Origin: Candidatus Methanophagaceae archaeon
GTDB lineage: Archaea; Halobacteriota; Syntropharchaeia; Alkanophagales; Methanospirareceae
Assembly (NCBI GenBank): GCA_003194435.1
Contig: PQXC01000001.1
Location: 70,991-134,990, forward strand
DNA length: 64,000 bases
Direction: 5' to 3'
Part shown: one piece after another, positions 18,191 to 61,800 of the stretch
Layout of the letters: the number at the start of each line of letters is the position of its first letter
How positions within the stretch are numbered: position 1 is the stretch's first letter
Notes under the pieces: model-generated
Seen by the model: the letters and a program-made list of their open reading frames with translations, nothing else
Databases searched by the model: none
Told to the model about the DNA's origin: nothing
Translations under genes and position numbers: made by a program

Positions 18191-20034
18191 TCCTTATACT
18201 TATACGCTATGGGATAACCCGATATTACAGGGTAGAAGAGGAAGAAGAGAACCGCAATCGAAATAAGAAAAGCAATAACCACACATTTAAAGAAGAGACC
18301 TTTTCTCCCTGATAACCCTTTCTTTTCTAAAAAAGTTGTCCAATAAGTGAGTGCAAATATCATAAACGGCACATCGGGCGCAAAATGATAGATGAACAGG
18401 GTTCTCGTGATAAGTGCATAAGGAATCCATTGTAACAGAAAAGGAATGAGAATGAAGAGGGAAACAAAACTACACTCCCTTTTCCTTATTATATCAGCTA
18501 CGAACTTTACCGCGATAAAAATCAATGCAGGAATACTGCACCACCATATCGCCGGATTGCCGAGCAAAACAATTGTCGAAACCATTGCTGTTCCGTCCAA
18601 AGTATTGGTATTAGAATAAGAATACATCCAGAGCGGTTTAAGCATAAGGGGCCAGGACCACCAGGGCGAAGAGAAAGGATGTGTCGCTGTATTTCCTGCA
18701 TGGTATCCAAACATGCCCAATTGCAGATCGAAGACGGTTAGTGGTGTGGGAGGGGTGATACTCATATTGCATCCGGACATGTATTTGGATATGTATTCCA
18801 TATACAGCGGAAACCTGTGAATATCCAGCAGCCCATGTCCACCACCCGAAAGCATGTATGGAATGTAGGTTGTGATATAAATAGCAGCGGAAACGAACAG
18901 TCCCGCTAAAACAATTTTATAATCATCGAAAATCGGCTTTTTATTTCTACAGTTGCTAATCAATAAAAGAATCAAAATTGCTACTAAACCAAATACCGCC
19001 GTCCATTTCACAGCGAAGCAAAGACCGAAGAAAATGATGCTGAGAAAAAGAGAAGTGGATATTCTCCTTTTTTCGCTCTCTCCTTCCTCTTCCCGCTTTG
19101 AGAAGTAATCGAAGGCGAAATAAAACATTAATAAAGAGAAAAGGAGGATATAGATTTCCCCAGTCGCCAACCTTGCCAGAGAGAAATGCATAAACTCGAA
19201 GGTCATGAGGTAAGCAGCGAAGAAGCCTGCTGCTGAGCTTTTAAACATGCGTTTACCAAAAAGAAACATTATCGGTATCATCGTAGCAGCGGCTAAAACG
19301 CCTAAAATACGCCAGCCAAATGGATTCATCCCGAAACACAAAATGCCAAAGGCTATTATGAGCTTCCCAAGCGGTGGATGTGTCCATTCATAAGGCTCCT
19401 CAAGATTTAAATGCTCCTTTGCGGTTCGCACAAAATACATCTCGTCAAAGTAAGCGCCATATTTTTGCGTTATCGGGAGTTTCACAAGGTCTTGCTCATC
19501 AACCAATCTCGAAGCATTTTCTCCGCTTACCTCTACCGGCTTTATCTTTTTATTATTCGCGGATATTACCAACATCTCACCTATTTTTCCTTTTGATTCC
19601 ACTACATCGAACGATACCACAACTCGGTTGAAAGTTCGATTATATCGTTTTTTACCTTCTAATTCTGTCATATTGAACACGAACTTGAGAAATCTTGTGC
19701 TTTCATTCCCTAAATCAATTCTTTCCCAGGAGCAGAAATGCACACGCTTTGCAGGGTCATTGTCATAAGATGCGAGAATTGACCAGTTATCCGGTGGTGT
19801 CCCTCCAAAGATATCGAACTTCGTTCGTTTCGCATCCGCCAGGAAAATATAAACCTCTTTTATTTGCTGAACACTGCCGAAATCCAAAACAACTTCTGGT
19901 TCTTTGTCCGCGGACGGTGGCTGCCAGCAGGAAGAAGGCATCATGACAGAGCCCATGTTAAGAGAGGCAAAAAGCAAAAACAGGATTGTAAGTGCTGTTA
20001 TTGATGCGATTTCCAAACATGTTATTCCTTTCAT
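18157..20034 (-). CDS. GT39/PMT-family (dolichyl-phosphate-mannose protein mannosyltransferase-like) polytopic membrane glycosyltransferase with an N-terminal extracytoplasmic domain.
   Basis: 'DEMYFVRTAKEHLNLEEPYEWTHPPLGKLIIAFGILCFG...FGWRILGVLAA' matches the PMT signature (DE..F...A......HPPL.K). Signal/TM at the N-terminus, then a ~180-aa soluble domain, then many TM helices. Confidence 0.6.
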   Translation of the reverse strand: MKGITCLEIASITALTILFLLFASLNMGSVMMPSSCWQPPSADKEPEVVLDFGSVQQIKEVYIFLADAKRTKFDIFGGTPPDNWSILASYDNDPAKRVHFCSWERIDLGNESTRFLKFVFNMTELEGKKRYNRTFNRVVVSFDVVESKGKIGEMLVISANNKKIKPVEVSGENASRLVDEQDLVKLPITQKYGAYFDEMYFVRTAKEHLNLEEPYEWTHPPLGKLIIAFGILCFGMNPFGWRILGVLAAATMIPIMFLFGKRMFKSSAAGFFAAYLMTFEFMHFSLARLATGEIYILLFSLLMFYFAFDYFSKREEEGESEKRRISTSLFLSIIFFGLCFAVKWTAVFGLVAILILLLISNCRNKKPIFDDYKIVLAGLFVSAAIYITTYIPYMLSGGGHGLLDIHRFPLYMEYISKYMSGCNMSITPPTPLTVFDLQLGMFGYHAGNTATHPFSSPWWSWPLMLKPLWMYSYSNTNTLDGTAMVSTIVLLGNPAIWWCSIPALIFIAVKFVADIIRKRECSFVSLFILIPFLLQWIPYALITRTLFIYHFAPDVPFMIFALTYWTTFLEKKGLSGRKGLFFKCVVIAFLISIAVLFFLFYPVISGYPIAYKYKESLRWLSGWTF

Positions 20035-20406: not shown

Positions 20407-21780
20407 TCACCTTTGAATTGAATACGTTTCAGTGTCCGTTCTGCCTTTCAGAGCATTCATCAACTCAGTATTTAGCAGTTCTCTTTTAATACCGAGTTTG
20501 TGCGAGAAATAGAAGCGGATTGCCTTTGATACCTTCTCGTATGCGTCCTTCTCTCTGCCATTCCTGAATAAGTGCTCTGCTTCTTCAATAAATCTTCTTG
20601 CCTCGCGCACGTAGTCAACACTTTGTGCAGACTCTACGGCAATGGTGGGCTGTGGCTGTATCTCTTTTCGCCTCGCTTTTTTAAGATATTTATCAAAGAT
20701 AAACCACCCGGTTGCAATTACTCCTGTGAGGGGTATGAGGAGAAGTAGCCACCAGGGACTGCCGCGCTGCTCTTCCTTATGCCCATGCTCGGATATGGTT
20801 TCCAGAGTAACATTCTGAATAGTTCCGTTGATATAATCCGCTTTGATTCTTCGCTCAGCACCTGTGCTCTCATTCCTGTAAGGTATAGTTACCTGTGTAT
20901 GGTTCTGAGATACGAGATTAAAAGAAGCTGGTGTCTGATTAAACCCTGCATTCCTTAATTGTTTATCGTATTTCACGAAATCAGGGTTTTTGGCAAGCTC
21001 CTTCCGTATTTGCTCTTCTTGCTCCTTATGCTGCTGCATCTCCTTTTCCAGCTCTTTTTTCAATTTACCCCCATTCTGACTGATTTGATTGTTCGTTATG
21101 CGCTTTTCTATACTCTCTTGATGCTGCTGCCCGCCTGAGCCTGATTGCGATTGTTGTTTGTTGCCATAGCTGTGAGTGGAACTGCCAATCTGGATATTGA
21201 AGGAGCCACCGGAGGAGGAATAAGAAGTGGAATGGATATAAGTGCCATTGCATTGATAAATAGTGGTAATGCCCTGCGTCTGCTGACCCTGCAGCTGCTG
21301 CTGGCTGTTATTAGCCTTCACCTGAATGTCCAGCGTGTTTGATTCTACCGTTTCGCGTTTGCCCGTTTCTGGATTGGTGTAAGTTATCTTTGCCGCGTCC
21401 AGTGTGTATTTACCGGGTTTAAATGGCACTATCGGGTCGCTGTATGCAAATACCGATTCTTCCTTTGCGGGCAGTGTATATTCAAGGCATCTTATGTCCA
21501 GCCCGTTATTTCCGATAACGTTCCGATCCACAATTCGAAGAGGTATCGGCTGCTTAAAGGGGTTCTTAAACTGAAGCTTAACGATAACCTTATCTCCGAC
21601 TTTTATGTTATCCGCATTTTCAACGACTTTATGTACGACAAGCGTCTTCGTCGCTGCTGCTGCCGCTACCGCTGACGTTGATGCTGCCGTGACACCGAAT
21701 AGAAATGCAGAAATCAGGAGCAAGACTATCGCCTTCTTCCTTTTGCTTCTCTCTATGCTTATGCCCATCTCATATCTCAT
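20407..21780 (-). CDS. Membrane-anchored protein with an N-terminal signal peptide, a Gln/Ser-rich low-complexity region, a single TM helix near the C-terminus and a DUF4129-like cytoplasmic tail (BatD-like).
   Basis: Start probably at 'MRYEMGISIERSKRKKAIVLLLISAFLFGV', which overlaps the batA stop (ATGA). TM 'WWLLLLIPLTGVIATGWFIF'. Assignment is by architecture only. Confidence 0.4.
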   Translation of the reverse strand: MRYEMGISIERSKRKKAIVLLLISAFLFGVTAASTSAVAAAAATKTLVVHKVVENADNIKVGDKVIVKLQFKNPFKQPIPLRIVDRNVIGNNGLDIRCLEYTLPAKEESVFAYSDPIVPFKPGKYTLDAAKITYTNPETGKRETVESNTLDIQVKANNSQQQLQGQQTQGITTIYQCNGTYIHSTSYSSSGGSFNIQIGSSTHSYGNKQQSQSGSGGQQHQESIEKRITNNQISQNGGKLKKELEKEMQQHKEQEEQIRKELAKNPDFVKYDKQLRNAGFNQTPASFNLVSQNHTQVTIPYRNESTGAERRIKADYINGTIQNVTLETISEHGHKEEQRGSPWWLLLLIPLTGVIATGWFIFDKYLKKARRKEIQPQPTIAVESAQSVDYVREARRFIEEAEHLFRNGREKDAYEKVSKAIRFYFSHKLGIKRELLNTELMNALKGRTDTETYSIQR

Positions 21781-22751
21781 ACAACCACCCTGTACTTGCC
21801 ATAGATAATATAAATATTCACTAATAACATTATAAAAGTTGCGATAAAGAACCAATCCTTTATGCTGGTCTCTTCCCACTCTCGCTTTATGTGCCCGCTG
21901 ATACGTGCGTAAATCTCATCCAGCGTCTTTTCATTCACTGACTTGTAGTATTTCCCGCCGGTATCCGCGGCGATTTTCTTCAACGTCTGTTCATCAAGCT
22001 CGGCATACTGCGGATTGCCAAAGAGGTCGTAGCCAATGACCACCGGTTTCTCAGAGCCCAGTCCAACGGTATAAACCTGTACGCCATTTGTTTTCGCGAA
22101 CTGAATTGCCTCCTGTGGACTCACAACACCTGCATTGTTCACCCCGTCACTCAGTAAAATAACTACTTTCTTCTTGTTTGGGATAGAAGTAGCCATGTCA
22201 ATAGCGAGGGCGAGACCATCACCGATAGCAGTTCGTCCTGTTCGCGGTTCTATCGCCTCTAATTTCTCTATTGCCTTATCCTTAAAAGGGGTGAGATAAC
22301 AGGCTGTTGTCGCACCGGATTCGAATACAACGATACCCACATTATCTTTCGGTTTCAAGCTCTTTATAAGCGTTTTGGCTGCTGCTTTCGCGGCTTCTAA
22401 TCTCGTTGGCTTATAATCGGTTGCCTGCATACTCCCGGAATCATCAATTGCCAGGACCACGTTAACGCCCTTCTTAGCGCGCTTGAGAGGAATCATCGGG
22501 TCGGCAAGACCAACGATAATCAATGCCATAGCGATGACAAGGATGATAAAAGGCAGATGAGCCCTGAATTTGGTGCTACGTTTGGTTCTATTACTTGTGG
22601 CTGAAGCTTCTGCTTCTTTTACAATACTGAAGGTACTGAATTTCAGAGCCGCTTCTTTACGCTTCTTGCAATAAATCCGGTAAAAATAGTATAGCAGGGG
22701 GATAATCCCCAGAAATAGCAACACCCACGGCTCTCCAAAACTCATGCCCAT
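21777..22751 (-). CDS. von Willebrand factor A domain membrane protein (BatA-like).
   Basis: N-terminal TM pair, then the vWA MIDAS 'VVLAIDDSGSM'. 'SDGVNNAG'. C-terminal TM 'FFIATFIMLLVNIYIIY'. Confidence 0.75.
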   Translation of the reverse strand: MGMSFGEPWVLLFLGIIPLLYYFYRIYCKKRKEAALKFSTFSIVKEAEASATSNRTKRSTKFRAHLPFIILVIAMALIIVGLADPMIPLKRAKKGVNVVLAIDDSGSMQATDYKPTRLEAAKAAAKTLIKSLKPKDNVGIVVFESGATTACYLTPFKDKAIEKLEAIEPRTGRTAIGDGLALAIDMATSIPNKKKVVILLSDGVNNAGVVSPQEAIQFAKTNGVQVYTVGLGSEKPVVIGYDLFGNPQYAELDEQTLKKIAADTGGKYYKSVNEKTLDEIYARISGHIKREWEETSIKDWFFIATFIMLLVNIYIIYGKYRVVV

Positions 22752-28182: not shown

Positions 28183-28692
28183 TCATGACCGAAGCATAAT
28201 AGCAGGAATCCAGTCATAATAAACTTTCCCGTTCGCATCCACGAACTCAGAGCAGTTTATCCAGCCGTTTGGTGTGAGTAAGGATGTGTTATGGTGGATC
28301 TGTGGATACGAACCTGTGCGGATGGTGTAGTCGTATGTTTCGTTGGGTAAAAGAACAACGGTCTTGTCGAAGGTGATGTTATGCCAGTCGCTTGCGTAAC
28401 CTTCCCAGGTTGCGGTGGCGTTCCATGTTTTGTTCCAGATGCGAGCATATTCGGTATGCCCGCCTGTGCCTGCGCATGGATATGTGTAAAGTTTGGTTAC
28501 GATAATTGTTTGGTTTGTCGTGATTGTGCCGTTGTGCGTGCCTGCTATTGAAGGATATGGATTTGAGGTGTGCCGGTGTTGAAGACTTTTAATGCTCCTG
28601 AAGTGGTAAATATTATACTCTGAACTCTCTGCCGAATTCCCACTTTGGTCTGCGCCGTTTACAACGAAATAATAACAGTTGCCTGGTAGCAA
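28183..28692 (-). pseudogene. 5'-truncated fragment of an FN3-PKD surface-protein paralog. Retains the end of the FN3 domain plus the shared sequon-rich C-terminal domain and lacks the PKD domain.
   Basis: 'YYFVVNGADQSGNSAESSEYNIYHF' parallels 'YYFVVKSVDLSGNSAESSEYSFTT' of the 42858 gene. C-terminal 'NPYPSIAGTHNGTIT...YDWIPAIMLRS' is near-identical to the 42858 gene C-terminus. In-frame stop immediately upstream. Confidence 0.55.
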
Positions 28693-28897
28693 TCCTGCTA
28701 ATTCAATGACATGAGTCTACAAATAGTGAGTCCTTCTCTCTTTCTGTATAAATTCTCGATGCTTTGCCATATTTCACCAAACTATCCTCGGGGTGTGGTG
28801 TCGTTTATGAGTTTCTGGGAAGATTAAATTGCACTAACTATTGAGACCTGTACGCAAAGAAATAGAATGAATAATAAGAGTTCTTTGGTCTTCATTT

Positions 28898-29368
28898 TCA
28901 TGTTTCACCTCGATTGACTGATTCGTTCTTTTCTGGGACTGGGTCTATCACATCAAAATTCTCTATTTCCTCAATCTTTGATCTCAATTTTTTAAATGCC
29001 CCGTCATGCGTCATTATTTCATTCACACCGTTCATAACCATTGTAGCCAATAAAACCGCATCTCTGCCTCCTATTCCATAATTCCAATATTTGGATAGCA
29101 GTTTGAGTGCTTTCTGCATCATATCATAATCAAAATCGAGTAATTCCAGTGATCTTAGCCTTGAAATATAGTTTATGTCTTCCCAAAATTCGTTTTCTGG
29201 CTCATGGCGAACAAGATAGTGCGCTACTTCCTGAATAACAATTGTATTTGCCAATATCCCTTCTTCTCCCATGATAATTCTTCTTATTGGTTCTTTAACA
29301 TATTTGTGCTCTTCTAAGCTTTCATCAAAATAATATATCCACATGTTGCTATCTATCATTATCATCAA
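28898..29368 (-). CDS. vapC: PIN-domain ribonuclease toxin VapC.
   Basis: 'MIDSNMWIYYFDE' (first acidic residue). 'VIQEVAHYL'. 'GGRDAVLLATMV'. 'IMTHDGAFKKL'. This is the PIN acidic quartet pattern. 4-nt overlap with the upstream vapB. Confidence 0.75.
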   Translation of the reverse strand: MMIMIDSNMWIYYFDESLEEHKYVKEPIRRIIMGEEGILANTIVIQEVAHYLVRHEPENEFWEDINYISRLRSLELLDFDYDMMQKALKLLSKYWNYGIGGRDAVLLATMVMNGVNEIMTHDGAFKKLRSKIEEIENFDVIDPVPEKNESVNRGET

Positions 29369-29598
29369 CGCATCTTCCAGATACTTTTGATCTCTTCTGG
29401 AGTAATGGTTTTATTGCCACTTTTTATCTTTCCTTCCATTCTTTTGACGAACTCTTCTGGACTGATTAAAGGCAAAAGCATTATCTTTTTACCTTCTTTT
29501 TTAATTTCGAGCTCCTCTCCAGGTTTTAGGTATAACTCTTCTCTTATCTTTTCTGGAATTTGAATTCTTCCTTTTTCGTCTATGACTGCTATTGCCAT
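29365..29598 (-). CDS. vapB: AbrB/SpoVT-fold antitoxin VapB.
   Basis: 'MAIAVIDEKGRIQIPEKIREELYLKPGEELEI' swapped-hairpin motif. 77 aa. Immediately upstream of vapC. Confidence 0.7.
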   Translation of the reverse strand: MAIAVIDEKGRIQIPEKIREELYLKPGEELEIKKEGKKIMLLPLISPEEFVKRMEGKIKSGNKTITPEEIKSIWKMR

Positions 29599-29745
29599 AT
29601 TACATCCTCCTCATGATGCATTGCCCGGCGGTTCCGCTCATTTTTTATCACTCATTTACTTTATTGTAGAAGTTATATAAAAGAGCTATATAAATGCTAT
29701 AGCTTATTTGTTATTTGTTGTTCTGAACACCCCTATTTCCGAATG

Positions 29746-29943
29746 TCATGATAGTTTAATAGCGGGAATCCAGTCATAATAAACTTTCCCGTTTGCATCC
29801 ACGAACTCAGAGCAGTTTATCCAGCCATTCTTTGTTGGCAGTGCATCAGTGTGGTGAATTTGCGGATAAGAGCCCGTCACTATCGTTATATTGTATGTCT
29901 CATAAGGCATTAATATCACTGTTTTATTGAAATAAATGTTCAT
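29746..29943 (-). pseudogene. Short 3' fragment of a beta-helix surface-protein paralog (last ~65 aa of the shared C-terminal domain) with its 3' flank conserved.
   Basis: 'YNITIVTGSYPQIHHTDALPTKNGWINCSEFVDANGKVYYDWIPAIKLS' matches the C-terminus of the 39379-41742 gene, including the '...IPAIKLS' ending. The ~80 nt downstream (29681-29760) matches the sequence downstream of 41742. Confidence 0.55.
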
Positions 29944-30107
29944 CCAGTCCTCTTTGTAACCTTTCCATTCCGCATAAGCACGCCCAGTTCAGGCAGTGAG
30001 ATTTCGCTGCTCTTTTATCCGTGTATCCATCCTTATGATCCTTGAAGCACCACAATAAGGGCATCTCGTCCGTGACATTGGCAATGTTCTCCATTGTTAT
30101 ATTGTTA

Positions 30108-34459: not shown

Positions 34460-36790
34460 ATGTTTGATTATATTGTGGTGGTGGTCGGTGAAGAGCATGA
34501 GGTAAAGCGATTGGAGCATTTCCCATGGCATGAAGGTGTACTCCAGAACTCTATTCTCATACCCGTCTCGGAAGGTAGCTGGAACGGTCCAGCGGGCAAT
34601 GGGCTTGGTACTTTATTCGCGATAAAAAACGCATCTAACGCAGCGGGAAAAGAACTTGTTGAGGAAGTGAAACAGGGTAAGAGTGTCCTTATCGTGCATA
34701 CAGCGGGTAAAGGCACAAGGAACGTACTGACGAGGACCTGTAAGGAGAAAGCATTCATAGATGTTCCTGGTTTGACCATACTTGAGGGTGTGATAAAGCA
34801 ATTTCAGCGGTTCTCTATCCCACACAGGATAATGGTTACATGGGGTGACCAGTTCCTCTTCATCGCTGATACTCCTGAATCCTTAATTGAATGCGCACAT
34901 TCTACGCATGTCATGCTCTTTGGCTTGAAATCAGAGTTTACAGAGGAGATTGTCTCCAAATATGGTATTCAGATAGTTAGATGTGAAGATAAAGGTAAAG
35001 GCTGTGAACTGCTTGATTTTGACGATACACGGAACTATGAAGTGGTGAAGAGTAAGATGGAGAGGTACAGAGGCAGTGAGGTGCTGTTGAATCTGGGGTT
35101 ATTCACGCTGAGCGGAGTTTTGACCGAACGGCTGCTGGATGCTTTCAGCGATAGGCTTGAAGAGAGGGCCGGGGAGTTCAATTCTGATGAGTTATGGCAG
35201 TTATGGTGCTCTCCAGACTCTGTTACTACTAACAAATGGCTACGGGAGCGTGCAGAACGGTTAAAGCGGGAGATGACGATGACATCCGACCTGAACTTGA
35301 TAAAGAGCTTTGCAATAAGTGAACAAAGCATCTGGCTCGATTTCGGGACGAATAAGAGCTATTACAGGAATATGATGCGACTTTTGTCAGGAGGGGCTGA
35401 GGCTGTGCAATTAAGGAGATTCCTGAATGTCGAGCTCCGCTCCGACACTGACGGCTGCGAGATTCTGGATTCAATCTATGTGAATTCCGGAATAGAGAGA
35501 GGGCGGATAAAGAGGAGTGTGGTATCGAATACAACTGCGAAAGCCGCATTACTCGAAGATGCTTGCGTGCTCAATTCCCGATTGAACAGAATAAACGGTA
35601 AAAACTGTGTTGTTTATAACCTCGTTGATAGCGATTCGGTGGAGCTTACTGACTGTGTGCTGGTGGATGTCTTTCATCCAGCCAGGGGAAGGATAAGACT
35701 CAGGTTCCCAATAGGTAAGGAGAGCAGACCTAAGGAGGAGTGGTGGTCCTCACGCCTGCCCGGTAACGAATATACATTGAGCGAAGTTGCAGCTATGACC
35801 AGGGGTATTACTGATGAAGAGATGCAGTCCACCAGGCTAAGACATGCACGGCTGGCAGATGCGAGGGTGAAAGAGAGGGAAAGGGTGAGGGATATGATTG
35901 AGCACCCGATGAAGCTCAAGCCCCTCATCATAAACAAGCCCTGGGGCTATGAGTTATGGTGTGCCTCACCACGGAACTATATCGAAGGTGAGGAATTTAC
36001 GCTCTGTGAGCTCAATACTTTCTTCTCAGAAGCGATATTCGGCATGAAGATGGAGGAATTCCCGCTGATAGTGAAGATAATAAAAGCAGATGAGAACCTT
36101 TCGGTACAGGTACATCCTGATGACGGGTATGCACGCAAGATGGGTGATGTAATGGGCAAGGAAGAGGCGTGGTATGTTCTCGAAGCGAAAGAGGATGCGA
36201 GGATTTATTTAGGATTCCGGGATTCCCTACGCAGTGGTGAATTCCTGGAACTGGTAAAAAGAGGCAAGATATTGAACTACATGAATTCGTTTTATGCTCA
36301 ACCCGGCGATATCTACCACATCCCTGCCGGTGTCATACATGCCCTGGGCGCGGGTACAAAGGTATATGAAGTGAGTACCGCGTCAGAAAGGACATTCAGA
36401 GTCTATGATTATGGCAGGGGCAGGGAGCTACATCTGAATGATGCTATGAATGTCATTAGACTTGAGGTGCTACGGGGATTGAAGCATGGAGGAGGGCATC
36501 TGCAGGGTAAACATCTGGATTTGAGGCTTATCTCTGTTCATAATAGTAATGGTAATGGTATGAATCCGGGCACAGACATGGGTATGGACATAAAGAATGC
36601 GGGTGTCCTCACCTGTGTAAGGGGGCAGGTAACTCTGGTCGGTGATGCAAAGGTAAAACTGCCATTAAAGACCTTCGAGACCGCACTCGTGCCTGTACCT
36701 GTAACTGCGAGTGGTGGTAGTGCCAGTGGCAGTGGCATCAGACTGGAAGGCGAAGGTGACCTTATATACGCCAGTTTTATTAGCTCTTAG
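34460..36790 (+). CDS. Two-domain protein: N-terminal sugar-nucleotide pyrophosphorylase-like domain (~480 aa) fused to a C-terminal class I phosphomannose isomerase cupin (ManA type).
   Basis: N-terminal 'GNGLGTLF' and 'HTAGKGTRN' resemble nucleotidyltransferase G-x-G-T-R loops. C-terminal 'LKPLIINKPWGYELW...FPLIVKIIKADENLSVQVHPDDGYA...GKEEAWYVLEA' matches the B. subtilis-type ManA signature (QVHPDD...GKTE.WYI). Confidence 0.6.
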   Translation: MFDYIVVVVGEEHEVKRLEHFPWHEGVLQNSILIPVSEGSWNGPAGNGLGTLFAIKNASNAAGKELVEEVKQGKSVLIVHTAGKGTRNVLTRTCKEKAFIDVPGLTILEGVIKQFQRFSIPHRIMVTWGDQFLFIADTPESLIECAHSTHVMLFGLKSEFTEEIVSKYGIQIVRCEDKGKGCELLDFDDTRNYEVVKSKMERYRGSEVLLNLGLFTLSGVLTERLLDAFSDRLEERAGEFNSDELWQLWCSPDSVTTNKWLRERAERLKREMTMTSDLNLIKSFAISEQSIWLDFGTNKSYYRNMMRLLSGGAEAVQLRRFLNVELRSDTDGCEILDSIYVNSGIERGRIKRSVVSNTTAKAALLEDACVLNSRLNRINGKNCVVYNLVDSDSVELTDCVLVDVFHPARGRIRLRFPIGKESRPKEEWWSSRLPGNEYTLSEVAAMTRGITDEEMQSTRLRHARLADARVKERERVRDMIEHPMKLKPLIINKPWGYELWCASPRNYIEGEEFTLCELNTFFSEAIFGMKMEEFPLIVKIIKADENLSVQVHPDDGYARKMGDVMGKEEAWYVLEAKEDARIYLGFRDSLRSGEFLELVKRGKILNYMNSFYAQPGDIYHIPAGVIHALGAGTKVYEVSTASERTFRVYDYGRGRELHLNDAMNVIRLEVLRGLKHGGGHLQGKHLDLRLISVHNSNGNGMNPGTDMGMDIKNAGVLTCVRGQVTLVGDAKVKLPLKTFETALVPVPVTASGGSASGSGIRLEGEGDLIYASFISS

Positions 36791-39378: not shown

Positions 39379-41742
39379 ATGAATAAAGATATAAAATATC
39401 TCGTGTTTGGAATGTGTGTGGCATTTGTGCTATTCAGTGCCTTCGCGGGTGTGAGTGTGGGTGTGACGTTGGCGTCTGCAACAACGATATACGTGCCTGA
39501 CAACTACGCGAAGATTCAGTGGGCTATTGATAGTGCAAGTGTTGGGGATACGATTGTTGTTAGGGATGGAACTTATGTTGAGAATATAGATATAAACAAA
39601 CCACACCTAACGATTAGGTCTGAGAATGGGTCTGCCAACTGCGTTGTTCAGGCTGCCAAATCTTATTACCACGTCTTCAATGTGACCGCAGATAATGTTA
39701 CCATCAAAGGCTTCACCGTTACCGGGGCTACCGGCTATTATAAAGCTGGAATTTATCTCTATAACTCGGATTACTGTAGGATAGAGAATGTAATCGCCTC
39801 GAACAACTATTGGGGTATCTATCTGTGTTCTTCCAGCAACAACACTATCTATAACAACAACGCCTCGAACAACATCGATGGAATCCACCTCCACTCTTCC
39901 AGCAGCAACACCATAGCAAACAACACCGCAAACTCGAACTACCGGTATGGCATCTATCTGTATGATTCCAGCAACAATACTATCTATAATAACAACGCCT
40001 CGAACAACGATGATGGCATCGTTCTGGGTGATTCCAGCAGCAACAATATCTATAACAATACCGCAAACTCAAACAACCATTGTGGTATTGAGCTGTGGGG
40101 TTCCAGCATCAGCAGCAACAACAACAATATCTATAGCAATACCGCCTCGGACAACTATCGTGGTATTGAGCTGTGGGGTTCCAGCAACAACAATATCTAT
40201 AACAACAACGTAAACTCGAACAACTATTATGGCATCTCTCTGTGGTTTTCCAGCAACAACAGCATCACCAACAACGTAATGAATAGCGATGGCATTCACA
40301 TTGGAGGCTCTCAACTACAATACTGGAACACTCATACAATGGAGGGCAACACCGTCAATGGTAAACCTCTTTATTATTTTAAGAACCAGATCGGAGGTAA
40401 GGTTCCAGAGGATGCAGGGCAGGTCATCGTTGCCAACTGTACGGGAATGAGAATAGAGAATCTGAATATTAGCAATACCGATGTAGGAGTTCAATTAGGA
40501 TTCTCATCGCATAATATTATTAAAAACAACACCGCAAACTCGAACGATGATGATGGCATCTCTCTGTATTCTTCCAGCAACAACACTATCTATAACAACA
40601 CCGCAAACTCGAACGATGATGATGGCATCTCTCTGGGTTCTTCCAGCAACAACACTATCTATAACAACAACGCCTCGAACAACTATTGGGGTATCTATCT
40701 GTGGCATTCCAGCAACAATAATACTATCTATAACAACAATGCCTCGAACAACAATGACGGCATCTATGTGTATTCTTCCAGCAACAACACTATCTATAAC
40801 AACACCGCAAACTCGAACGATGATGATGGCATCTCTCTGTGTTCTTCCAGCAACAATAATATCTATAACAACGCAAACTCAAACAACGGGTATGGCATCT
40901 ATCTGGGTGATTCCAGCAACAACAATACTATCTATAACAACAACGCAAACTCGAACAATGATGATGGCATCTCTCTGGGTTTTTCCAGCAACAACAAAAT
41001 CTACAATAACAACGCCTCGAACAACGATGATGGCATCTCCCTGGATTATTCCAGCAACAACAAAATCTACTTCAACAACTTCATAAACAACACAGATAAC
41101 GTTTATTCTTATTATGGTTATACTTATGGATCTGAAAATAAATGGAATTCGACGGAAGAAATAACATACACATACAAAGGAAAAACTTACGAGAACTACC
41201 TCGGTAACTACTGGGACGATTATACTGGAACAGATACGAACAAAGATGGAATTGGCGACACGCCTTACAGCATAGATTCAGACAAAGACAATCATCCACT
41301 AATGGAGCCTTGGGAGAATTACTTTGCACCATCAGAGAATATTTTTGATACAGGAAAGCCGGCAAATCCATACCCTTCCATATCGGGCACGCACAACGGC
41401 ACAATCACGCCAAACCAGACAATTACTGTATCCACGCTTTACACTTATCCATGTGCGGGCACAGGCGGGCACACCGAATATGCTCGTATCTGGAACAAAA
41501 CATGGAACGCAACCGCAACCTGGAACGGCTATGTAGACGACTGGCACAACATCCCCTTTAATGAACCATTCACACTTGTAAAAGACGAAGTTTACAACTA
41601 CACTATCAGAACAGGCTCCTATCCGCAAATTCATCATAACACTTCCTTACTCACACCAAACGGCTGGATAAACTGCACCAAATTTACAGATGCGAACGGG
41701 AAAGTTTATTATGACTGGATTCCTGCTATTAAACTATCCTGA
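39379..41742 (+). CDS. Secreted right-handed parallel beta-helix (NosD/pectin-lyase-fold) repeat surface protein with the shared sequon-rich C-terminal domain.
   Basis: Signal peptide 'LVFGMCVAFVLFSAFAGVSVG'. 'TIYVPDNYAKIQWAIDSASVGDTIVVRDGTY'. About 20 copies of a 22-aa PbH1-like repeat 'SSNNTIYNNNASNNDDGIxL'. C-terminal 'NPYPSISGTHNGT...IPAIKLS'. Confidence 0.7.
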   Translation: MNKDIKYLVFGMCVAFVLFSAFAGVSVGVTLASATTIYVPDNYAKIQWAIDSASVGDTIVVRDGTYVENIDINKPHLTIRSENGSANCVVQAAKSYYHVFNVTADNVTIKGFTVTGATGYYKAGIYLYNSDYCRIENVIASNNYWGIYLCSSSNNTIYNNNASNNIDGIHLHSSSSNTIANNTANSNYRYGIYLYDSSNNTIYNNNASNNDDGIVLGDSSSNNIYNNTANSNNHCGIELWGSSISSNNNNIYSNTASDNYRGIELWGSSNNNIYNNNVNSNNYYGISLWFSSNNSITNNVMNSDGIHIGGSQLQYWNTHTMEGNTVNGKPLYYFKNQIGGKVPEDAGQVIVANCTGMRIENLNISNTDVGVQLGFSSHNIIKNNTANSNDDDGISLYSSSNNTIYNNTANSNDDDGISLGSSSNNTIYNNNASNNYWGIYLWHSSNNNTIYNNNASNNNDGIYVYSSSNNTIYNNTANSNDDDGISLCSSSNNNIYNNANSNNGYGIYLGDSSNNNTIYNNNANSNNDDGISLGFSSNNKIYNNNASNNDDGISLDYSSNNKIYFNNFINNTDNVYSYYGYTYGSENKWNSTEEITYTYKGKTYENYLGNYWDDYTGTDTNKDGIGDTPYSIDSDKDNHPLMEPWENYFAPSENIFDTGKPANPYPSISGTHNGTITPNQTITVSTLYTYPCAGTGGHTEYARIWNKTWNATATWNGYVDDWHNIPFNEPFTLVKDEVYNYTIRTGSYPQIHHNTSLLTPNGWINCTKFTDANGKVYYDWIPAIKLS
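39790..41090 (+). repeat. In-frame tandem nucleotide repeats (period ~66 nt) encoding the PbH1-like units of the beta-helix protein.
   Basis: Near-identical blocks such as 'ttccagcaacaacactatctataacaacaccgcaaactcgaacgatgatgatggcatctctctg' recur many times between ~39.8 and 41.1 kb. Confidence 0.7.
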
Positions 41743-41838: not shown

Positions 41839-42774
41839 ATGGCAAAGAGGTTAGGCTTGAAGGTATTGGCAATCTCTATTGCCTTAGTAATAGTCGCAAG
41901 CAGCGTGGCGATGTATGGGTATAGCGGAACAGAAGGGGGAGAAGGGATAAGCGAAAGCGGAGGCGGAAAAGGCGTTATCTCGCTTGTGGCTCCGCCTTTT
42001 ATCGGCGTCGCCGGCGCGGGTGAGGCGATGGGTGGCAACGGTGGAGGCGCTTTCCCCAAAGACAAAGCGGGAATCTCTGCATATATAAACACAAGTCAGA
42101 CGATAGACATCGAAAAAATAAAGACGATTTTCACTGAAGTGGAAGAAGTAGGCGACAACTATATCATTGGAATAACACCTATCTCCGACTTCGGCGGTGA
42201 TATAGATGTGCATGTATATGCAGACACGGACGGATGGATTGTTGCTTATCTCGAGACAGATGAGCCAGCGGCGAAGATAATGCAGTGGGGAACTGCGGAT
42301 GTGAACAATCCAACCATTGGCGTAATAAAATCCACCACGCTTGAAGATGCGCTATACAAAGCAGGTGATGCTGCCGGCGTTGGAATTGTGGCAAGCAAAA
42401 TAAAATACTACGATTTCGAGTTTCCAAATGCGGACAGCATGACTTTGTTTGTCAGAACAAGGGCAACAGCGGGGACAAATATCGCACAGGTTGAGATTCC
42501 AGCGGATTATATGCTCTTCGAGGCTTCTTATTACCACTATGTCACAGGCTACTATAGGTATAGCTATAGCACAAATTCAAAGTTAAAAGTGGACGGGGCA
42601 ACGATCAGTAGTCTTTCAATTTCAGGTTATGGCGGAAGGAAATGGGGCAGAGCATTTGACTCATATAAAGGAGCAATCACTACTGGAACGCTGCACAAAA
42701 TAGAAATAGCTTACGGTTCTGACTATTCTGGTTCAGCCGGCGTAGCAACGGTGCTGATATATAGGACTGGATGA
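41839..42774 (+). CDS. Hypothetical secreted/membrane-anchored protein (311 aa) with a Gly-rich N-terminal region.
   Basis: N-terminal hydrophobic 'LKVLAISIALVIVASSVAMYG', then 'GTEGGEGISESGGGKG...GAGEAMGGNGGGAF'. No known motif. Sits between the two surface-protein genes. Confidence 0.4.
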   Translation: MAKRLGLKVLAISIALVIVASSVAMYGYSGTEGGEGISESGGGKGVISLVAPPFIGVAGAGEAMGGNGGGAFPKDKAGISAYINTSQTIDIEKIKTIFTEVEEVGDNYIIGITPISDFGGDIDVHVYADTDGWIVAYLETDEPAAKIMQWGTADVNNPTIGVIKSTTLEDALYKAGDAAGVGIVASKIKYYDFEFPNADSMTLFVRTRATAGTNIAQVEIPADYMLFEASYYHYVTGYYRYSYSTNSKLKVDGATISSLSISGYGGRKWGRAFDSYKGAITTGTLHKIEIAYGSDYSGSAGVATVLIYRTG

Positions 42775-42857: not shown

Positions 42858-44219
42858 ATGAAATCTAAGGAATTTACTTATTTTATCTTAGCCTTTACAT
42901 TGATGATTCTCGTAAACACGGCATCAGCAGCGATTAACATAACCGATGCGGATGCAATATACGAAGTAAACTTGTCCACCGTGAGTGTTCCAACAAGTCC
43001 AGTTCCAATTAAAACCGTTTTCGTGGTCAACGGAGATACATCTTCAGACAAGAATTTATCCCCCGTAAGCATTCCAACCCAGCCCTCTCCACTAAAAGAA
43101 ATTTTCATCATCAACGAAGATGCAACGCTTAAAAAGAATCTTTTCACGGTGAGCATTCCCACTGAGCCTTTACCCATCAGAGAAATATTTATTCATCTCG
43201 AAGATGCAAAGTATTTTGAAGAATTGCTCTTCCCAAAAGAGCTCATAAATGATACCACACCGCCAATAATCACAAACATAACCGTAACGAACATAACAGA
43301 CGATTCTGCAACGATAAAATGGGATACGGATGAGTTCGCAGATAGTCTTGTTAAATACGGAACATCCTCGGGCGCTTACACAAAGCAGGAATACGACGAA
43401 TTATTCGTGAAGAACCACTCTGTTTCGTTATACAATCTCTCGTCGGGGACAAAATATTATTTCGTTGTGAAGAGCGTTGATCTAAGCGGGAATTCGGCAG
43501 AGAGCTCAGAATATAGTTTTACCACTTTAGGAACATTAAACCAACCGCCGATCGCAAGTTTCACATACTACCCTGAAAATCCTTTACTTGGCGAGCAGAT
43601 AACCTTTGATGCATCTTCTTCCTACGACTCAGACGGAAACATTACGAATTACGAATGGGACTTCGGCGATGGAAACGTCACGAACACAACGCATGAAATA
43701 CTAAATCATTCCTATTCAGAAGCAGGAAGTTATGAGGTAACATTAACAGTAACAGACGATGATGGAGTGACAAATTCAACTACAAAAGAAATAACGGTCT
43801 ATCCACCAGTAGCAATCTTCGACACCGGCACACCCTCAAATCCATACCCTTCAATAGCAGGCGTGCACAACGGCACAATCACACCAAACCAAACAATTAT
43901 TGCAACTAAGCTTTACACTTATCCCTGTGAAGGCACAGGCGGGCACATCGAATATGCTCGCATCTGGAACAAAACATGGAACGCAACCGCAACCTGGGAA
44001 GGCTATGTAGACGACTGGCACAACATCTCCTTTAATGAACCATTCACACTTATAAAAGACGAAGTTTACAACTACACCATTCGCACAGGCTCTTATCCAC
44101 AGATTCACCATAACACATCCTTACTCACACCAAACGGCTGGATAAACTGCACTAAATTTACAGATGCGAACGGGAAAGTTTATTATGACTGGATACCTGC
44201 TATTATGCTTCGGTCATGA
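42858..44219 (+). CDS. Secreted surface protein: N-terminal tripled short repeat, FN3-like domain, PKD domain, then the shared sequon-rich C-terminal domain.
   Basis: Signal 'FTYFILAFTLMILVNTASAA'. Tripled 'VSxPTxPxPIKxxF(V/I)xNxD' repeat. FN3-like 'TDDSATIKWDTDEFADSLVKYGTSSG...YYFVVKSVDLSGN'. PKD 'ITFDASSSYDSDGNITNYEWDFGDGN...GSYEVTLTVTDDDG'. C-terminal 'NPYPSIAGVHNGT...IPAIMLRS'. Confidence 0.7.
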   Translation: MKSKEFTYFILAFTLMILVNTASAAINITDADAIYEVNLSTVSVPTSPVPIKTVFVVNGDTSSDKNLSPVSIPTQPSPLKEIFIINEDATLKKNLFTVSIPTEPLPIREIFIHLEDAKYFEELLFPKELINDTTPPIITNITVTNITDDSATIKWDTDEFADSLVKYGTSSGAYTKQEYDELFVKNHSVSLYNLSSGTKYYFVVKSVDLSGNSAESSEYSFTTLGTLNQPPIASFTYYPENPLLGEQITFDASSSYDSDGNITNYEWDFGDGNVTNTTHEILNHSYSEAGSYEVTLTVTDDDGVTNSTTKEITVYPPVAIFDTGTPSNPYPSIAGVHNGTITPNQTIIATKLYTYPCEGTGGHIEYARIWNKTWNATATWEGYVDDWHNISFNEPFTLIKDEVYNYTIRTGSYPQIHHNTSLLTPNGWINCTKFTDANGKVYYDWIPAIMLRS

Positions 44220-53835: not shown

Positions 53836-55806
53836 ATGAGAGCGGTTTGGAGCGGTTCTATAAGCTGGGGACTTGTAAATATACCGATAAAATTATATTC
53901 GGCAGTGGAATCCAGGGGAGCAGATTTCAAGTTGTTGTGTAAGGAGCATAAATCGCCGATACGTTATAAGCGGGTCTGTGAAGCTGGAGGAGAAGAGGTT
54001 GGATGGAACGATATTGTTAATGGATTAGAACTGGAAAAAGGCAATTATTTTATACTCACAAAAGATGAACTGGATAAACTAAAACCAGAAGGAAAGGAGA
54101 ATCTGGAGATATTAGAATTTGTGGATAAAAGAGAATTGGAGCCGATTTACTATGATAAGAGCTATTTCGCAGTGCCAAAGGAAAAGAGCGAGAAGGCGTA
54201 TTTCCTGCTCAAAGAACTGCTGGATGAAATGGGAATCATCGCAATAGGTAAATTTGTGATGCGGAACAAGGAGTATATATGCGCTTTACAGCCTTTTAGG
54301 GAGGGTATGCTTTTATCTACACTCCATTATCACCAGTATGTCAGAGACATCGGCGAAATCGTGATGGGAGAGCGACCCGAGATAGGTGCTGAGGAGAAGG
54401 AGTTGGGCAAGCTGCTCATAGAGAAGCATCTCAAAAAAGAACTTCATCTGGAGAAGTTCAGGGATACATTCATGGAACGATTGAAAGATTTGATAAGGAG
54501 GAAGATGGAAGGTAAAGAGATAGAAATAGGTGAATTGCCGAAGCGAGAAGAGAAAAGCCTCGTGGATGCATTAAAAGCGAGTGTGGAAGGTATTGAAAAA
54601 CCAGCGCCAACAATACCTGTAACAACACCAATAGCGTATCCGGAGGAGCGCGCGAAAGGGGTGGAGCGCATTAGCATTAGCCGAGAATACCTCCCTATGC
54701 TATGCGAAAAGGGGATAGAAAGGGTTCTCGATGAAAAAGGCTATATTTTTGAACCCAAGATGGATGGGACGAGGTGTATAGCAGAGGTGTACGAGGAGGT
54801 GAGGCTGATCAACAGAAGAGGGAGGGATATAAGCAAGAGATACCCCGAGATAGTGAAGGAACTGGGAAGGGTAACACATAACTGTGTTTTAGATGGAGAA
54901 ATCGTGTGTTTTAATGAAGAAGGGGTTCCCGATTTCAATCTATTACAAAAAAGAGAGCAAATTGATTCGGATTTACTGATAGAAGCCAGAGCAAAGGGGA
55001 TACCTGCAACATATGTGGTATTTGACATCCTGGCAAGAGGAGAAGAAGATTTATCAGAGAAGCCGTTGGGTGAGAGGAAGAAGATATTGGATGAAACGGT
55101 GCAAGATGCTGAGCACATCATGAAAATTGATTATGAGGCGGATGGTAGAAAGCTCTGGGACGAGATAAGGAAAAAGGGGATGGAGGGCGTGGTTGCCAAA
55201 AGAGTGGATAGTGCTTATTACCCCGGAATGAGGAAATGGGATTGGCTCAAGCTGAAAAATTTGAAGACAATTGATGTGGTGCTCGTGGGTTATACCACTG
55301 AGAAACGAGAGATAAGCGCTCTGGGAATGGCTCTCTATCAGGATGCTGACCTGGTTTACATAGGCAGTGTGGGAACGGGCTTTAGTGAGAATTTAATAAA
55401 GATGTTGAAGCGCGAGATAAGGGAATTAAAGTTAAAAACAGATAAAGCACCGGTAGTTAACCCGGAGAAAGTTAAGCATAAGGGAATGAAATGGATCAAA
55501 CCGCATCTTGTGGGCGAGATACAGTATCTCGAGGTGACTGGCGGCGGTGAGTTAAGGGCGCCGAGTTTTAAGGGGTTAAGGTGGGATAAGCCCATAGAAG
55601 AATGCAGTTTCGACCAGTTGTGGAAGGGGAGAATAGAAGAGTGCATTGAGATATTTAATCACGAGGCGGCTCAGCCTGTGAGTGTATATGAACATGAACG
55701 ACTGTGTGAGGATTACCTTGTTGAGCAGCCTACGCTGTTAAAAGGCGGTAGTGCTATTCCATATGCCTGGGTTAAGGCAAAACTGGAGGCATATAGGAGG
55801 GGATAG
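53836..55806 (+). CDS. Fusion protein: N-terminal Ku DNA-end-binding domain (~aa 1-260) joined to a C-terminal ATP-dependent DNA ligase (LigD-type ligase domain, ~aa 283-656).
   Basis: Ku: 'AVWSGSISWGLVNIPIKLYSAVE' (bacterial/archaeal Ku N-terminal signature), 'YFAVPKEKSEKAYFLLKELL'. Ligase: motif I 'EPKMDGTRCI' (KxDG). Motif III 'YVVFDIL'. Motif IV 'DGEIV'. Motif V 'EGVVAKR'. Motif VI 'KWDWLKLK'. One uninterrupted 656-aa ORF. Confidence 0.8.
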   Translation: MRAVWSGSISWGLVNIPIKLYSAVESRGADFKLLCKEHKSPIRYKRVCEAGGEEVGWNDIVNGLELEKGNYFILTKDELDKLKPEGKENLEILEFVDKRELEPIYYDKSYFAVPKEKSEKAYFLLKELLDEMGIIAIGKFVMRNKEYICALQPFREGMLLSTLHYHQYVRDIGEIVMGERPEIGAEEKELGKLLIEKHLKKELHLEKFRDTFMERLKDLIRRKMEGKEIEIGELPKREEKSLVDALKASVEGIEKPAPTIPVTTPIAYPEERAKGVERISISREYLPMLCEKGIERVLDEKGYIFEPKMDGTRCIAEVYEEVRLINRRGRDISKRYPEIVKELGRVTHNCVLDGEIVCFNEEGVPDFNLLQKREQIDSDLLIEARAKGIPATYVVFDILARGEEDLSEKPLGERKKILDETVQDAEHIMKIDYEADGRKLWDEIRKKGMEGVVAKRVDSAYYPGMRKWDWLKLKNLKTIDVVLVGYTTEKREISALGMALYQDADLVYIGSVGTGFSENLIKMLKREIRELKLKTDKAPVVNPEKVKHKGMKWIKPHLVGEIQYLEVTGGGELRAPSFKGLRWDKPIEECSFDQLWKGRIEECIEIFNHEAAQPVSVYEHERLCEDYLVEQPTLLKGGSAIPYAWVKAKLEAYRRG

Positions 55807-58846: not shown

Positions 58847-61800
58847 CTACATGAACTCATCCAGTGCCTTCTGCTTATCAGCAGTAGGGAAGAGCAACTC
58901 AACGTCTCGCTTCAGCAGTTCCAATCGCTGTCTCGTGTATTTACTCAGGTGATACTCATCAGCTATGCGCAGTGATTCCGATAGATATTTCTTTATTCCC
59001 GCAGCGTGCACCGTAGGCAGTAATTTCCCGCCGCATCGGCTGCACCTGCCCGTAAGTGGCACTCTCCGGTATTTCGCATTGCAGCGACTGCACCGCACCC
59101 TCTGAGTGCCGAACGCGCGGAGATTGCCCTTTATATCGCGCAGAAAATGGTTCTTTATCACCGTCTCCGCAACTTCACGTGCATCCACCGCTCTTATAAG
59201 TCTTGCCAGCCTCAATTGTGCATCTACCTTATCCATCATCGTACCCAGCGTCTTGTAGAGCGAGTTCAAAGGACCTGCTGCAATCTCCGTTGTATCATGC
59301 GTGTAGCCGAACCCGTAAACATCGCCCGGGTGGTCTATTCGCGTGGCTGCCGTCTCTACTGCGACCTCTTTTGGATGCTTACCCAACTCGGCGGCGAGAT
59401 AGAAGTCCAGAGGGTATTCCCACATGATAGAGAGGTTATGTGCCTCTTTATCCACCTCCTTCGGGTTTATTACCGGTATGAGAACTAAAGGTGCATCCAT
59501 TCTGCCCCCGATCTTATCGGGCAAGAAAGATAGCGAGAAGTTCAGTAGCGCATCCAGCAGCAGAATTATTGAGTCCTCATCGCCGTCACAGTTGCCGGTC
59601 AGCACAGAGCCATTTGCCAAAAAATTGTGATGCCCTTCTACTTCTATATCGTATAAGAACCCAAATTCCGACTTAACCGGTTCTATCTCCTTTATTTCGT
59701 CAAGAACAGCATCGCCGAACGAAGAGATACGAGGTGCTTTCTCTTTTGCCAATACTGCTCTCAATGCTTCGTTCTTTCTTTTCTCTACGAAACCGATTGC
59801 CTCACCAAATTTTCGCGCATATCGCGAACTTATAAAGAGATAATGAAGGTCAAAGACCGGTAATTCCTCTCCACTTTTACCTTTACCCTTTCGCTCGTAG
59901 AATCGTCTGGCAACACCTCCGGCAGCTTTTGTCTCTCTTTTCAAGCGGCAGAATATACCAAATCGGAGCAACTGCAATCCGATGTCCCGCAGTAGCTTCT
60001 CGCTCACTGAGCAACAGGAGACCACAAGTCTGTTTCTTTCCACAGAGCCATCACCTGAGAAATAGGCACTCAGCAACCACTTCATCTTATCGCGAGGAAT
60101 ATTCCACAGTAACGGTGGAATTCGCTTATCTTTTGCTCCTTTGCCCGTACCCAGAACATCCACAAATAGATGGTATATCAATCGGTTTGATATGACGAGC
60201 ACTCCCTCTCCCTCTTTTATGCTCGGTGAAAAACCAAAAACATCTTTGACGCAGTTCACCATGTCATCTAAGAGCTTCTTTTCCCGCGATGAGATGCTGA
60301 CCTGATAGAATTCCTTTTCAGTGCTTCTTGCATAGCCTTCTGCGAGATAATAGCCAATAAGCCGCATGAAAGGCTCGTCAAGCCTGATCATTCGCGGAAT
60401 TGCCGTATTACCTCTTTTAACACCGAGCTGGCATTCACGCGGGATTGCAGTCCAATCGCGGTGCGACCGCTTGAGTAACGAATGCAAAATAGGTAGCGGG
60501 ATGCTATCACGATAAACATAATTTGAAAATGTCTTTTTCCTGATTCCCATCTGCTCGGCAGCGCGTTTGAGCCCTCCCAGGTCTTTTATTAGCTCTTCTA
60601 CTACTGCTCGCACTCCTCTTACCATCACGTCCCGATAAAGGTCATCAAAGTGCAAAAATTCTTTCAGAAGGTCTATTTCTGCTCTCTCCTCTTCTTTAAG
60701 CTCGAGCTTTTCCGGCACTAATAGCATATCTTTATCATCCAGTTCCAGAACTTTTTTGTACTGGATTTTACCGTTTGCGTTTGCGTTTGTGTTTGCGTTG
60801 GACCATACCGTAGTTCGGTGCTCGGGTGACGCGACGAATTCTCTGCCCGACCTGGTTCTCACACGCACGAGATGTGCCGGTGCAGGTGTTTTAATCACTG
60901 ATTTGATCTCCTTCAGTTCAAACTGCCCATTCTCTGGATTCAATGCATACGTCTTAATTCCTTCAATTGTTCTTCGTGTTGTACCAAAATCATCAACAAC
61001 CTCTTCATGTGCGTTTTCGCCATTACTATTATACAGCGACTCCAGGTCTATACTTTTTAATCCCCCGGCAGAGTCCGTGACCAGAACTTCGGTATTTGGC
61101 GTCAAACAGTTCCTTCGCTTCGCTGCATGGAAGAAAGGATGTGCATAACAGGCAGAGGCACGCGTGAATCCTATTATCCTGCCCAGTATTCCTGCGGAGG
61201 TGTGTGGTGCCAGTCCAAGCACAAACTGCCCGATCAGGTCCTCCTTAGTTCTTACATTGTAATAGCGTGGTATTTGATAGAACTTCTCCAGCAGCTCGTC
61301 CAGGAACTTCGTAACACGGATGAGATAAGGAACGGCATTAGCAGAGATGATGATATCCTGTTGCTTCAACTCCACTATCTGCGTATCGCTTCTCAGCTCC
61401 TCACCGTTTATATCATGCAAATAGCCAAGCTCTCGTGCTCGTTCAACGCTTAATCCTATCTCACGGAGCTTGAAATGCGTTAATGGTAAATTAGTGAAGT
61501 CGTATCTTATCGTGCCATCTTTATAGACAAAGACGTCATGTTTCGCCCTTAATATGCCCTTAGCAAGATGTTCAGGCACTTTGTTGCCCGAGATGAGTCC
61601 CGTTACACATTTAACATCATGCTTCGTCAATTCGTGCTCATCACCGAGCCTCTTTATTGCATCATGATAGAACTGGTAGAGGTCTATACTCATACTCCGC
61701 CTGTTATTGTTACTGCTCCTGCTGTTGCTTCTGCTACTCCCCCCATGGGTCTTGAGATTGGAGGAGCCACATTTATCGCATCTGGAATAGCAAGATAGTA

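Follow-up and report, generated by a model that had tools for sequence, protein, structure and literature searches.

Several described systems place a terminal module upon a broad assortment of secreted proteins. In bacteria, S-layer homology (SLH) and dockerin modules terminate many functionally unrelated secreted proteins, are encoded in many copies per genome, and co-occur with cohesin, while the C-terminal domain of the type IX secretion system (T9SS) and the PGF-CTERM/archaeosortase system represent C-terminal tags upon large and diverse exported sets. The current study examines a domain of ~130 amino acids (aa) found at the C-termini of two secreted proteins encoded within a stretch of 64,000 nucleotides (nt), hereafter the window, from a Candidatus Methanophagaceae archaeon (assembly GCA_003194435.1, contig PQXC01000001.1, positions 70,991 to 134,990 of the forward strand). 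This domain is almost confined to the Methanophagales (ANME-1, anaerobic methanotrophic archaea), which are uncultured archaea that consume a large part of the methane in anoxic sediments and whose envelope and contacts with partner bacteria are poorly known.

Like SLH and dockerin modules, this domain is terminal, attached to functionally unrelated secreted proteins, present in many copies per genome, and sometimes accompanied by cohesin, yet it lacks sequence similarity to either module, is predicted to be all-beta, and is rich in N-x-S/T sequons, whereas dockerin itself is a Ca-binding module of ~70 aa. The domain yielded no match to the Pfam SLH, Dockerin_1, or Cohesin models; cohesin was encountered only within N-terminal cargo regions. 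Its resemblance to the T9SS C-terminal domain and to PGF-CTERM is similarly limited to its position upon a large and diverse exported set, since it has neither a hydrophobic helix nor an NCBIfam match, appears globular and conserved throughout its length, and also occurs alone, in tandem, and internally. T9SS is a system of the Bacteroidota and is not known in archaea. A description of the domain was not found in the literature library consulted when searching with its motifs, with ANME-1 surface proteins, or with DUF4082 (see below), and a comparative genomics study of ANME (PMC9012536) treats dockerin and cohesin, but not the present domain. We view it as a novel, lineage-specific version of a known principle, namely a terminal module addressing secreted proteins to the cell surface.

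Results

Using tblastn of both host proteins against the window, exactly four copies of a single ~134-aa domain were located (41329-41739, 43803-44216, 28566-28186 on the minus strand, and 29982-29749 on the minus strand), which bears out the original prediction that a discrete module is common to two secreted proteins and two fragments. The first host gene (39379-41742, +; taken from the open reading frame (ORF) list) encodes a 787-aa secreted NosD/parallel beta-helix protein, which begins with the Sec-type signal peptide MNKDIKYLVFGMCVAFVLFSAFAGVSVGVTLASA and matches Pfam NosD (1.2e-73) and Beta_helix (5e-64) together with ten NCBIfam TIGR03804 repeats. Its C-terminus is formed by copy A (41338-41742, +; 134 aa plus stop, seven sequons), the translation of which reads NIFDTGKPANPYPSISGTHNGT...DWIPAIKLS*. 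The second host gene (42858-44219, +) encodes a 453-aa secreted FN3-PKD protein that likewise carries a signal peptide (Pfam PKD_4 1.9e-23, fn3 2.4e-06, Pur_ac_phosph_N 5.9e-10) and terminates in copy B (43812-44219, +; 135 aa plus stop, eight sequons). The coordinates originally proposed for the copies were correct, except that copy B had been assigned a start at 43810, which lies 2 nt out of frame and should be 43812. The C-termini of both host proteins conform to the consensus NIFDTG.P.NPYPSI.G.HNGTITPNQTI...DWIPAI.L, and copies A and B share 350 of 391 nt (89.5%), as expected from the ~90% identity first noted.

The remaining two copies are relics. Copy C (28183-28566, -) is itself intact, but the upstream parts of its gene are frameshifted; as determined by tblastn and frame reading, this decayed paralogue spans 28183-28901 (-) and retains, in other frames, a "KVFNTGTP" linker, FN3 remnants (28612-28786), and an ORF encoding a signal peptide (28824-28901). 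The FN3-PKD protein aligns to the copy C region with 83% identity over 127 aa and additionally to the FN3 fragments in other frames. Relic D (29749-29982, -) retains just the last 78 aa of the domain (67% over 78 aa by tblastn) and is located directly downstream of a Rad50-like gene, by its 3' end. Part of relic D together with its 3' flank (29659-29877) is a 93% nt match to a locus (L009) at the end of a contig from the metagenome-assembled genome (MAG) WYZ-LMO13. Situated between relics C and D is a VapBC-like pair consisting of a PIN-domain toxin (28898-29368, -) and a MazE/AbrB-type antitoxin (29365-29598, -).

Outside of the window, the domain constitutes a large family. A word-indexed search returned 629 matches, of which the named ones derive from Methanophagales or "Methanomicrobia archaeon" MAGs, and an exhaustive profile search of 1.84 billion representatives identified 1,123 proteins with a cut-off of E <= 1e-3, of which 876 also passed E <= 1e-30, the 1,123 being representatives of 50%-identity clusters. 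Looked up as an exact sequence, the window protein returned no record in public assemblies. Scanning one genome per species yielded at least 552 domain copies, almost all from genomes labelled as Methanophagales, ANME-1, or with similar names. WYZ-LMO13 accounts for 12 copies among the best 80 matches as well as for the closest relative (92%), and orthologues of the FN3-PKD protein (loci L001, L046, and L045) are found in WYZ-LMO13 and in Candidatus Methanoxibalbensis ujae, a member of the order Methanophagales, which assigns the window to an ANME-1 archaeon. A few matches, 70-77% identical, carry the labels of bacterial or thaumarchaeal MAGs and look like binning carry-over. A considerable fraction of the proteins that the Methanophagales secrete ends in this domain, which is seldom encountered elsewhere.

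Its position within these proteins is nearly invariant. The domain ends no more than 10 residues from the C-terminus in 144 of 147 representatives, the proteins closing with ...DWIPAI(K/R)L plus 0-2 residues, and a hydrophobic C-terminal stretch was absent from the last 40 residues of all 147. The C-terminus likewise shows neither a membrane-spanning segment nor a signal for a lipid anchor. By a crude test, an N-terminal hydrophobic signal is present in 83 of the 126 representatives that start with M. The attached cargo is diverse, with NosD in 27 of 83, PKD in 18, and CARDB in 8, in addition to PQQ and FG-GAP propellers, Kelch, cohesin, LTD, SNase, and peptidases C25, C39, and S8. Several architectures depart from this arrangement: some proteins (P0121 and P0123) contain two domain copies in tandem, those of P0123 preceded by an N-terminal cohesin; P0122 bears an additional N-terminal copy; and P0097, P0103, and a 158-aa group (P0268-P0280) consist solely of a signal peptide and the domain. 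Among the metagenome relatives, P0278, P0282, P0284, P0286, and P0296 have in common a short N-terminal module (Y.LSWHVI.GGG...S.SY.....VGQ..G.S....Y....GYW.G), which follows the signal peptide, is fused directly to the domain, and has no Pfam match. Diverged copies (~52% identity, few sequons) were found at 4623-5390 of locus L081 (IMGVR_UViG_3300029813_000255) and 6001-6477 of L082, both within gene clusters for small, secreted proteins of the CarboxypepD_reg-like kind and for giant surface proteins that are very rich in sequons (DUF2341, Laminin_G_3); the nominally viral IMG/VR contig L081 looks cellular around its domain copy.

Among 80 related loci, no conserved partner or machinery gene was found beside the domain genes beyond the orthologous synteny of one secreted protein. 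This 311-aa protein, encoded in the window between the two domain-bearing genes (41839-42774, +), has an N-terminal hydrophobic segment and a Gly-rich stretch, lacks matches in Pfam or NCBIfam, and is syntenic with the FN3-PKD orthologue in five related loci, L001 and L046 among them. Another gene encoding 311 aa, adjacent to a stand-alone copy in L082, proved unrelated.

A further distinguishing characteristic of the domain is its abundance of sequons. The full-length window copies contain 7, 8, and 8 and the half copy contains 3, whereas shuffles of the same composition predict 2.0-2.5 (p = 0.003 or lower for the full copies). Six sequon positions (20, 26, 53, 71, 87, and 112) are occupied in 62-86% of 74 relatives, and where Asn is present at these positions, Ser or Thr follows at +2 in 84-100% of cases. 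Such retention of the +2 residue points to selection upon the sequon rather than upon Asn alone. Across 125 representative proteins, the domain carries 4.86 sequons per 100 aa (observed/expected 3.66), compared to 2.90 (1.72) in the N-terminal parts of the same proteins and 0.37 (1.07) in 36 other window genes. The originally noted density above background was upheld, and the refutation proposed for it, namely a density no higher than that of the remaining protein after correction for composition, fails across the family: in 112 of the 125 proteins, the domain is denser than the N-terminal part (Wilcoxon p = 3e-18). The FN3-PKD protein of the window is a caveat in this regard, as its N-terminal part is just as enriched over composition as its domain (13 observed vs 4.5 expected). 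Judged by their signal peptides and conserved, enriched sequons, the host proteins qualify as putative N-glycosylated archaeal surface (glyco)proteins, and we infer that the domain itself is N-glycosylated. Sequons number only 1-4 in diverged members and in the stand-alone members of 158 aa, indicating that glycosylation is not intrinsic to the fold; it appears to be an acquired decoration of the main ANME-1 branch that the fold does not require.

The presence of two PMT/GT39-like glycosyltransferases in the window had been raised as a possible connection to this glycosylation. Only one PMT-like gene could be verified (18157-20034), whereas Pfam gave nothing at E <= 1e-3 for two other large ORFs, 644-2614 (-) and 20407-21879 (-), neither of which is similar to the verified gene; the former looks like a membrane protein by eye. 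Archaeal N-glycosylation of N-x-S/T sequons is performed by AglB, while the PMT family is known for O-mannosylation. As the sole verified gene lies ~20 kb from the domain genes, on the opposite strand, and belongs to an O-mannosyltransferase-type family, a link between the domain and a PMT/GT39 enzyme is not supported. A 776-aa protein encoded 2.6 kb upstream of the beta-helix gene (34460-36790, +) has a weak match to a phosphomannose-isomerase catalytic domain (E = 1.9e-5) and may be involved in sugar-nucleotide supply.

Conservation is remarkably strong and extends over the entire domain. Median pairwise identity across paralogues and genera is 64%, and ~50 positions are conserved at >= 90% in 294 copies, producing the motif FDT..YPSI.G.H.GTI..LYTY.C.GTGGH.E..W.GY..W.N..F..Y.Y.I.TGSYPQI.H..G.I.C..F.D.NG..Y..IPAI.L. 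This includes two Cys (C39 and C113), three His (H19, H45, and H100), the residues D68 and D118, and the motifs YPSI, GTGGH.E, TGSYPQI.H, D.NG, and IPAI.L, while aromatic residues amount to 14% of the domain. Membership in a well-known characterised family would sit poorly with the notion of a dedicated module, but no such family was matched in Pfam, NCBIfam, or the PDB: the window copies have no Pfam or NCBIfam match even at E <= 10, and no significant PDB sequence match was obtained using a single sequence, a profile, or the consensus. The only recurrent Pfam signal is DUF4082 (PF13313), which occurs in proteins secreted by bacteria and archaea; with a limit of E <= 1, it was detected in 16 of the 142 members searched (best 1.2e-4). 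When members were trimmed to the domain, five of ten matched DUF4082 (E = 6e-5 to 1.6e-3), their residues 21-111 aligning collinearly to positions 21-115 of the 143-position profile (~90 residues). Even so, the best score, from one trimmed member (23.5 bits, E = 6e-5), falls below the gathering cut-off of 28.4 bits, and neither the window copies (E <= 10) nor the family consensus match the profile. Remote homology to DUF4082 is plausible but unproven, and the domain may descend from that superfamily. Since DUF4082 is itself uncharacterised, the likeness adds no functional information.

AlphaFold models of the domain are all-beta, but of low confidence, and for this reason no fold is assigned, although it is probably a globular beta-sandwich. 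The best Foldseek neighbors of model 1 include the carbohydrate-binding modules (CBM) CBM6 and CBM35 and the Ca-dependent fucose lectin thrombocorticin, none of which is significant (E = 0.086-0.16). Thrombocorticin is also the top phmmer match in the PDB, likewise non-significant (E = 0.36), whereas the better of the models (model 2) gave no structural match to a lectin or CBM.

Several comparisons suggest that the domain is exchanged between genes. The synonymous divergence (dS) of copies A and B is a mosaic of 0.78 (codons 1-40), 0.11 (codons 41-90), and 0.48 (codons 91-134), and their synonymous differences are clustered, the longest identical run comprising 31 synonymous-capable codons (permutation p = 0.007). 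Over the entire domain, the ratio of nonsynonymous to synonymous divergence (dN/dS) is 0.07/0.41, or about 0.18, which indicates purifying selection. The N-terminal 317 residues of the FN3-PKD protein are 86% and 91% identical to those of its orthologues in L046 and L001, respectively, but its domain shares only 72% and 85% with the same orthologues versus 88% (aa) with the domain of the unrelated beta-helix protein in its own genome. Domain and host-gene phylogenies disagree, and domain relics are present in other genomes as well. The mosaic dS, the clustering of synonymous differences, and the greater similarity of the domain to an in-genome paralogue than to its orthologues support cassette exchange or gene conversion between paralogues, in line with the recent duplication or gene conversion envisaged from nucleotide identity. 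In the WYZ-LMO13 contig PIXU01000260.1 (L001, 3373-3618), the sequence 3' of the FN3-PKD orthologue domain is 98-100% identical to the 3' flank of the beta-helix gene in the window. This junction was not used as evidence of a domain swap, as the gene order may simply differ there, or the assembly may have looped through the domain repeat.

Two additional features of the window were noted. A single 656-aa ORF (53836-55806, +) encodes a Ku70/80 beta-barrel domain (Pfam Ku 2.7e-40) joined to an ATP-dependent DNA ligase (DNA_ligase_A_M 1.5e-35), which is a fused protein of the non-homologous end-joining type in an archaeon. An intein that contains a homing-endonuclease domain of the LAGLIDADG type (matches to Intein_splicing and LAGLIDADG_3) interrupts the large subunit DP2 of DNA polymerase II (58847-63664, -).

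Discussion

The reading that we favor, albeit tentatively, is that the domain is a glycosylated module which docks its cargo non-covalently upon the cell envelope. Host proteins would be exported through Sec by means of their N-terminal signal peptides, after which the archaeal oligosaccharyltransferase would N-glycosylate the domain at approximately six conserved N-x-S/T sites. The folded and glycosylated domain would then dock on an S-layer or sheath protein or on its glycans, in a manner similar to the bacterial SLH, dockerin, or cell-wall-binding modules, thereby presenting beta-helix, PKD, CARDB, propeller, cohesin, peptidase, and nuclease domains. As a self-contained 3' cassette, the module would be moved and homogenized among paralogues by recombination or gene conversion, leaving relics behind, which is supported by the sequence comparisons described above. 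A role in anchoring or sorting is suggested by the extreme C-terminal position, the diversity of the cargo, and the absence of a C-terminal helix, while the docking step is proposed from architecture. The arrangement of a cohesin and then one or two domain copies (P0123) mirrors the cohesin-SLH anchoring scaffoldins of cellulosomes.

Certain observations weigh against docking upon the envelope. A conserved partner or machinery gene does not adjoin the domain genes in the 80 loci examined. Furthermore, a domain of 130 residues that bears 6-8 glycans would have little bare surface left with which to dock onto another protein. The existence of stand-alone copies (P0097, P0103, and P0268-P0280) and of tandem or internal copies (P0121-P0123) also implies that the domain can act by itself, which would suit an adhesin or lectin as well as an anchor. 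The main rival to envelope docking is a lectin- or CBM-like adhesion module that binds an external ligand, such as an exopolysaccharide matrix, the surface of a partner bacterium, or a mineral, and tethers its cargo there instead of to the envelope of the archaeon itself. The all-beta predicted structure, the aromatic content of 14%, the conserved D.NG near the C-terminus, and the secreted stand-alone copies are all consistent with such a module, as is the recurrent sub-threshold likeness to DUF4082, which occurs in secreted bacterial proteins. PA-IIL/thrombocorticin lectins, CBM6, and CBM35 are small beta-sandwiches that the domain weakly resembles in both sequence and structure (Foldseek E about 0.09 at best), and in PA-IIL lectins the free C-terminus is part of the binding site, which would fit an obligate C-terminal position. 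However, every one of these similarities is below significance, the structural ones were not reproduced with the better model, and the cargo is not enriched in carbohydrate-active enzymes. We regard external adhesion as possible, but doubtful.

It is also conceivable that the domain has no dedicated function, being a recently amplified structural spacer or "cap" kept alike by gene conversion and bearing sequons simply as part of general ANME-1 exoprotein glycosylation. The signals of gene conversion, the frequency of relics, and the equally sequon-enriched N-terminal part of the FN3-PKD protein would all be expected in this case, yet the same residues are >= 90% conserved in the 294 copies, which stem from many genomes and genera and some of which have diverged too far for recent conversion, and this conservation across genera makes a neutral, conversion-homogenized spacer unlikely. 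The purifying selection evident from dN/dS, the sequon density in excess of that of the host protein, and the near-invariant C-terminal position are likewise unexpected of a spacer, and we consider this explanation to be quite improbable. Still less probable is a C-terminal secretion or sorting signal removed by a dedicated machinery, as with the T9SS C-terminal domain or the substrates of sortases and archaeosortases. Although the domain occupies the extreme C-terminus of hundreds of unrelated secreted proteins and its boundary motif F-D-T-G is conserved at >= 90%, the 147 representatives lack the C-terminal transmembrane helix and the charged (basic) tail which, after a short motif, characterise archaeosortase/PGF-CTERM substrates, and FDTG is absent from the diverged L081 copy, which reads GFITPKGTYPSI. 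The domain parts of the scanned proteins have no match in NCBIfam, a library with models of sorting signals like Por_Secre_tail and PGF-CTERM, and no match to Por_Secre_tail (TIGR04183) or the Pfam T9SS C-terminal domain models was obtained. A cleaved signal is made less likely by the cargo-less, tandem, and internal copies as well as by the conserved glycosites, which, along with conservation of the whole domain, would be wasteful in a discarded signal; no machinery gene is conserved in its vicinity either. Least credible of all is an enzyme or metal-binding module, whether employing a Cys-His-Asp or His-cluster site composed of C39, C113, H19, H45, H100, D68, and D118 or a pepsin-like "IFDTG" aspartic site acting in self-processing. 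These residues are indeed conserved and "IFDTGS/K" resembles the pepsin active-site motif, but no Pfam peptidase or enzyme, including the aspartic peptidase models (Asp/RVP), was matched by the two window copies at E <= 10 or by 142 members at E <= 1. In addition, the Asp of FDTG is not invariant, as diverged members have lost D4, the two Cys are not lost in a correlated manner, and the fold is too small and too glycosylated for a typical enzyme. Both the pepsin-like "IFDTG" and sortase-like Cys/His readings were rejected due to the lack of a family match and the loss of the Asp in diverged members.

More than 1,000 protein families of the ANME-1 exoproteome bear this one conserved module. As such, it can serve as a signature by which ANME-1 surface proteins are catalogued from metagenome sequences and as a defined target to which antibodies, reporter fusions, and glycoproteomics can be directed, and it represents a clear natural case of domain-cassette exchange between paralogues. 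It also yields a testable hypothesis for how enzymes and adhesins could be retained at the surface when these proteins have no C-terminal membrane anchor. Should its function prove to be generic, it would represent one more uncharacterised lineage-specific domain. A bolder version of envelope docking, which is speculative and on balance unlikely, would have the domain serve as the "address label" of an unrecognised archaeal surface-display system, in which nearly the whole ANME-1 exoproteome is placed upon the sheath or S-layer, the conserved N-glycans are part of the attachment, and the module is freely exchanged as a 3' cassette. If this were true, the module would define, and open to experiment, the cell surface that mediates the syntrophic contacts of ANME-1.

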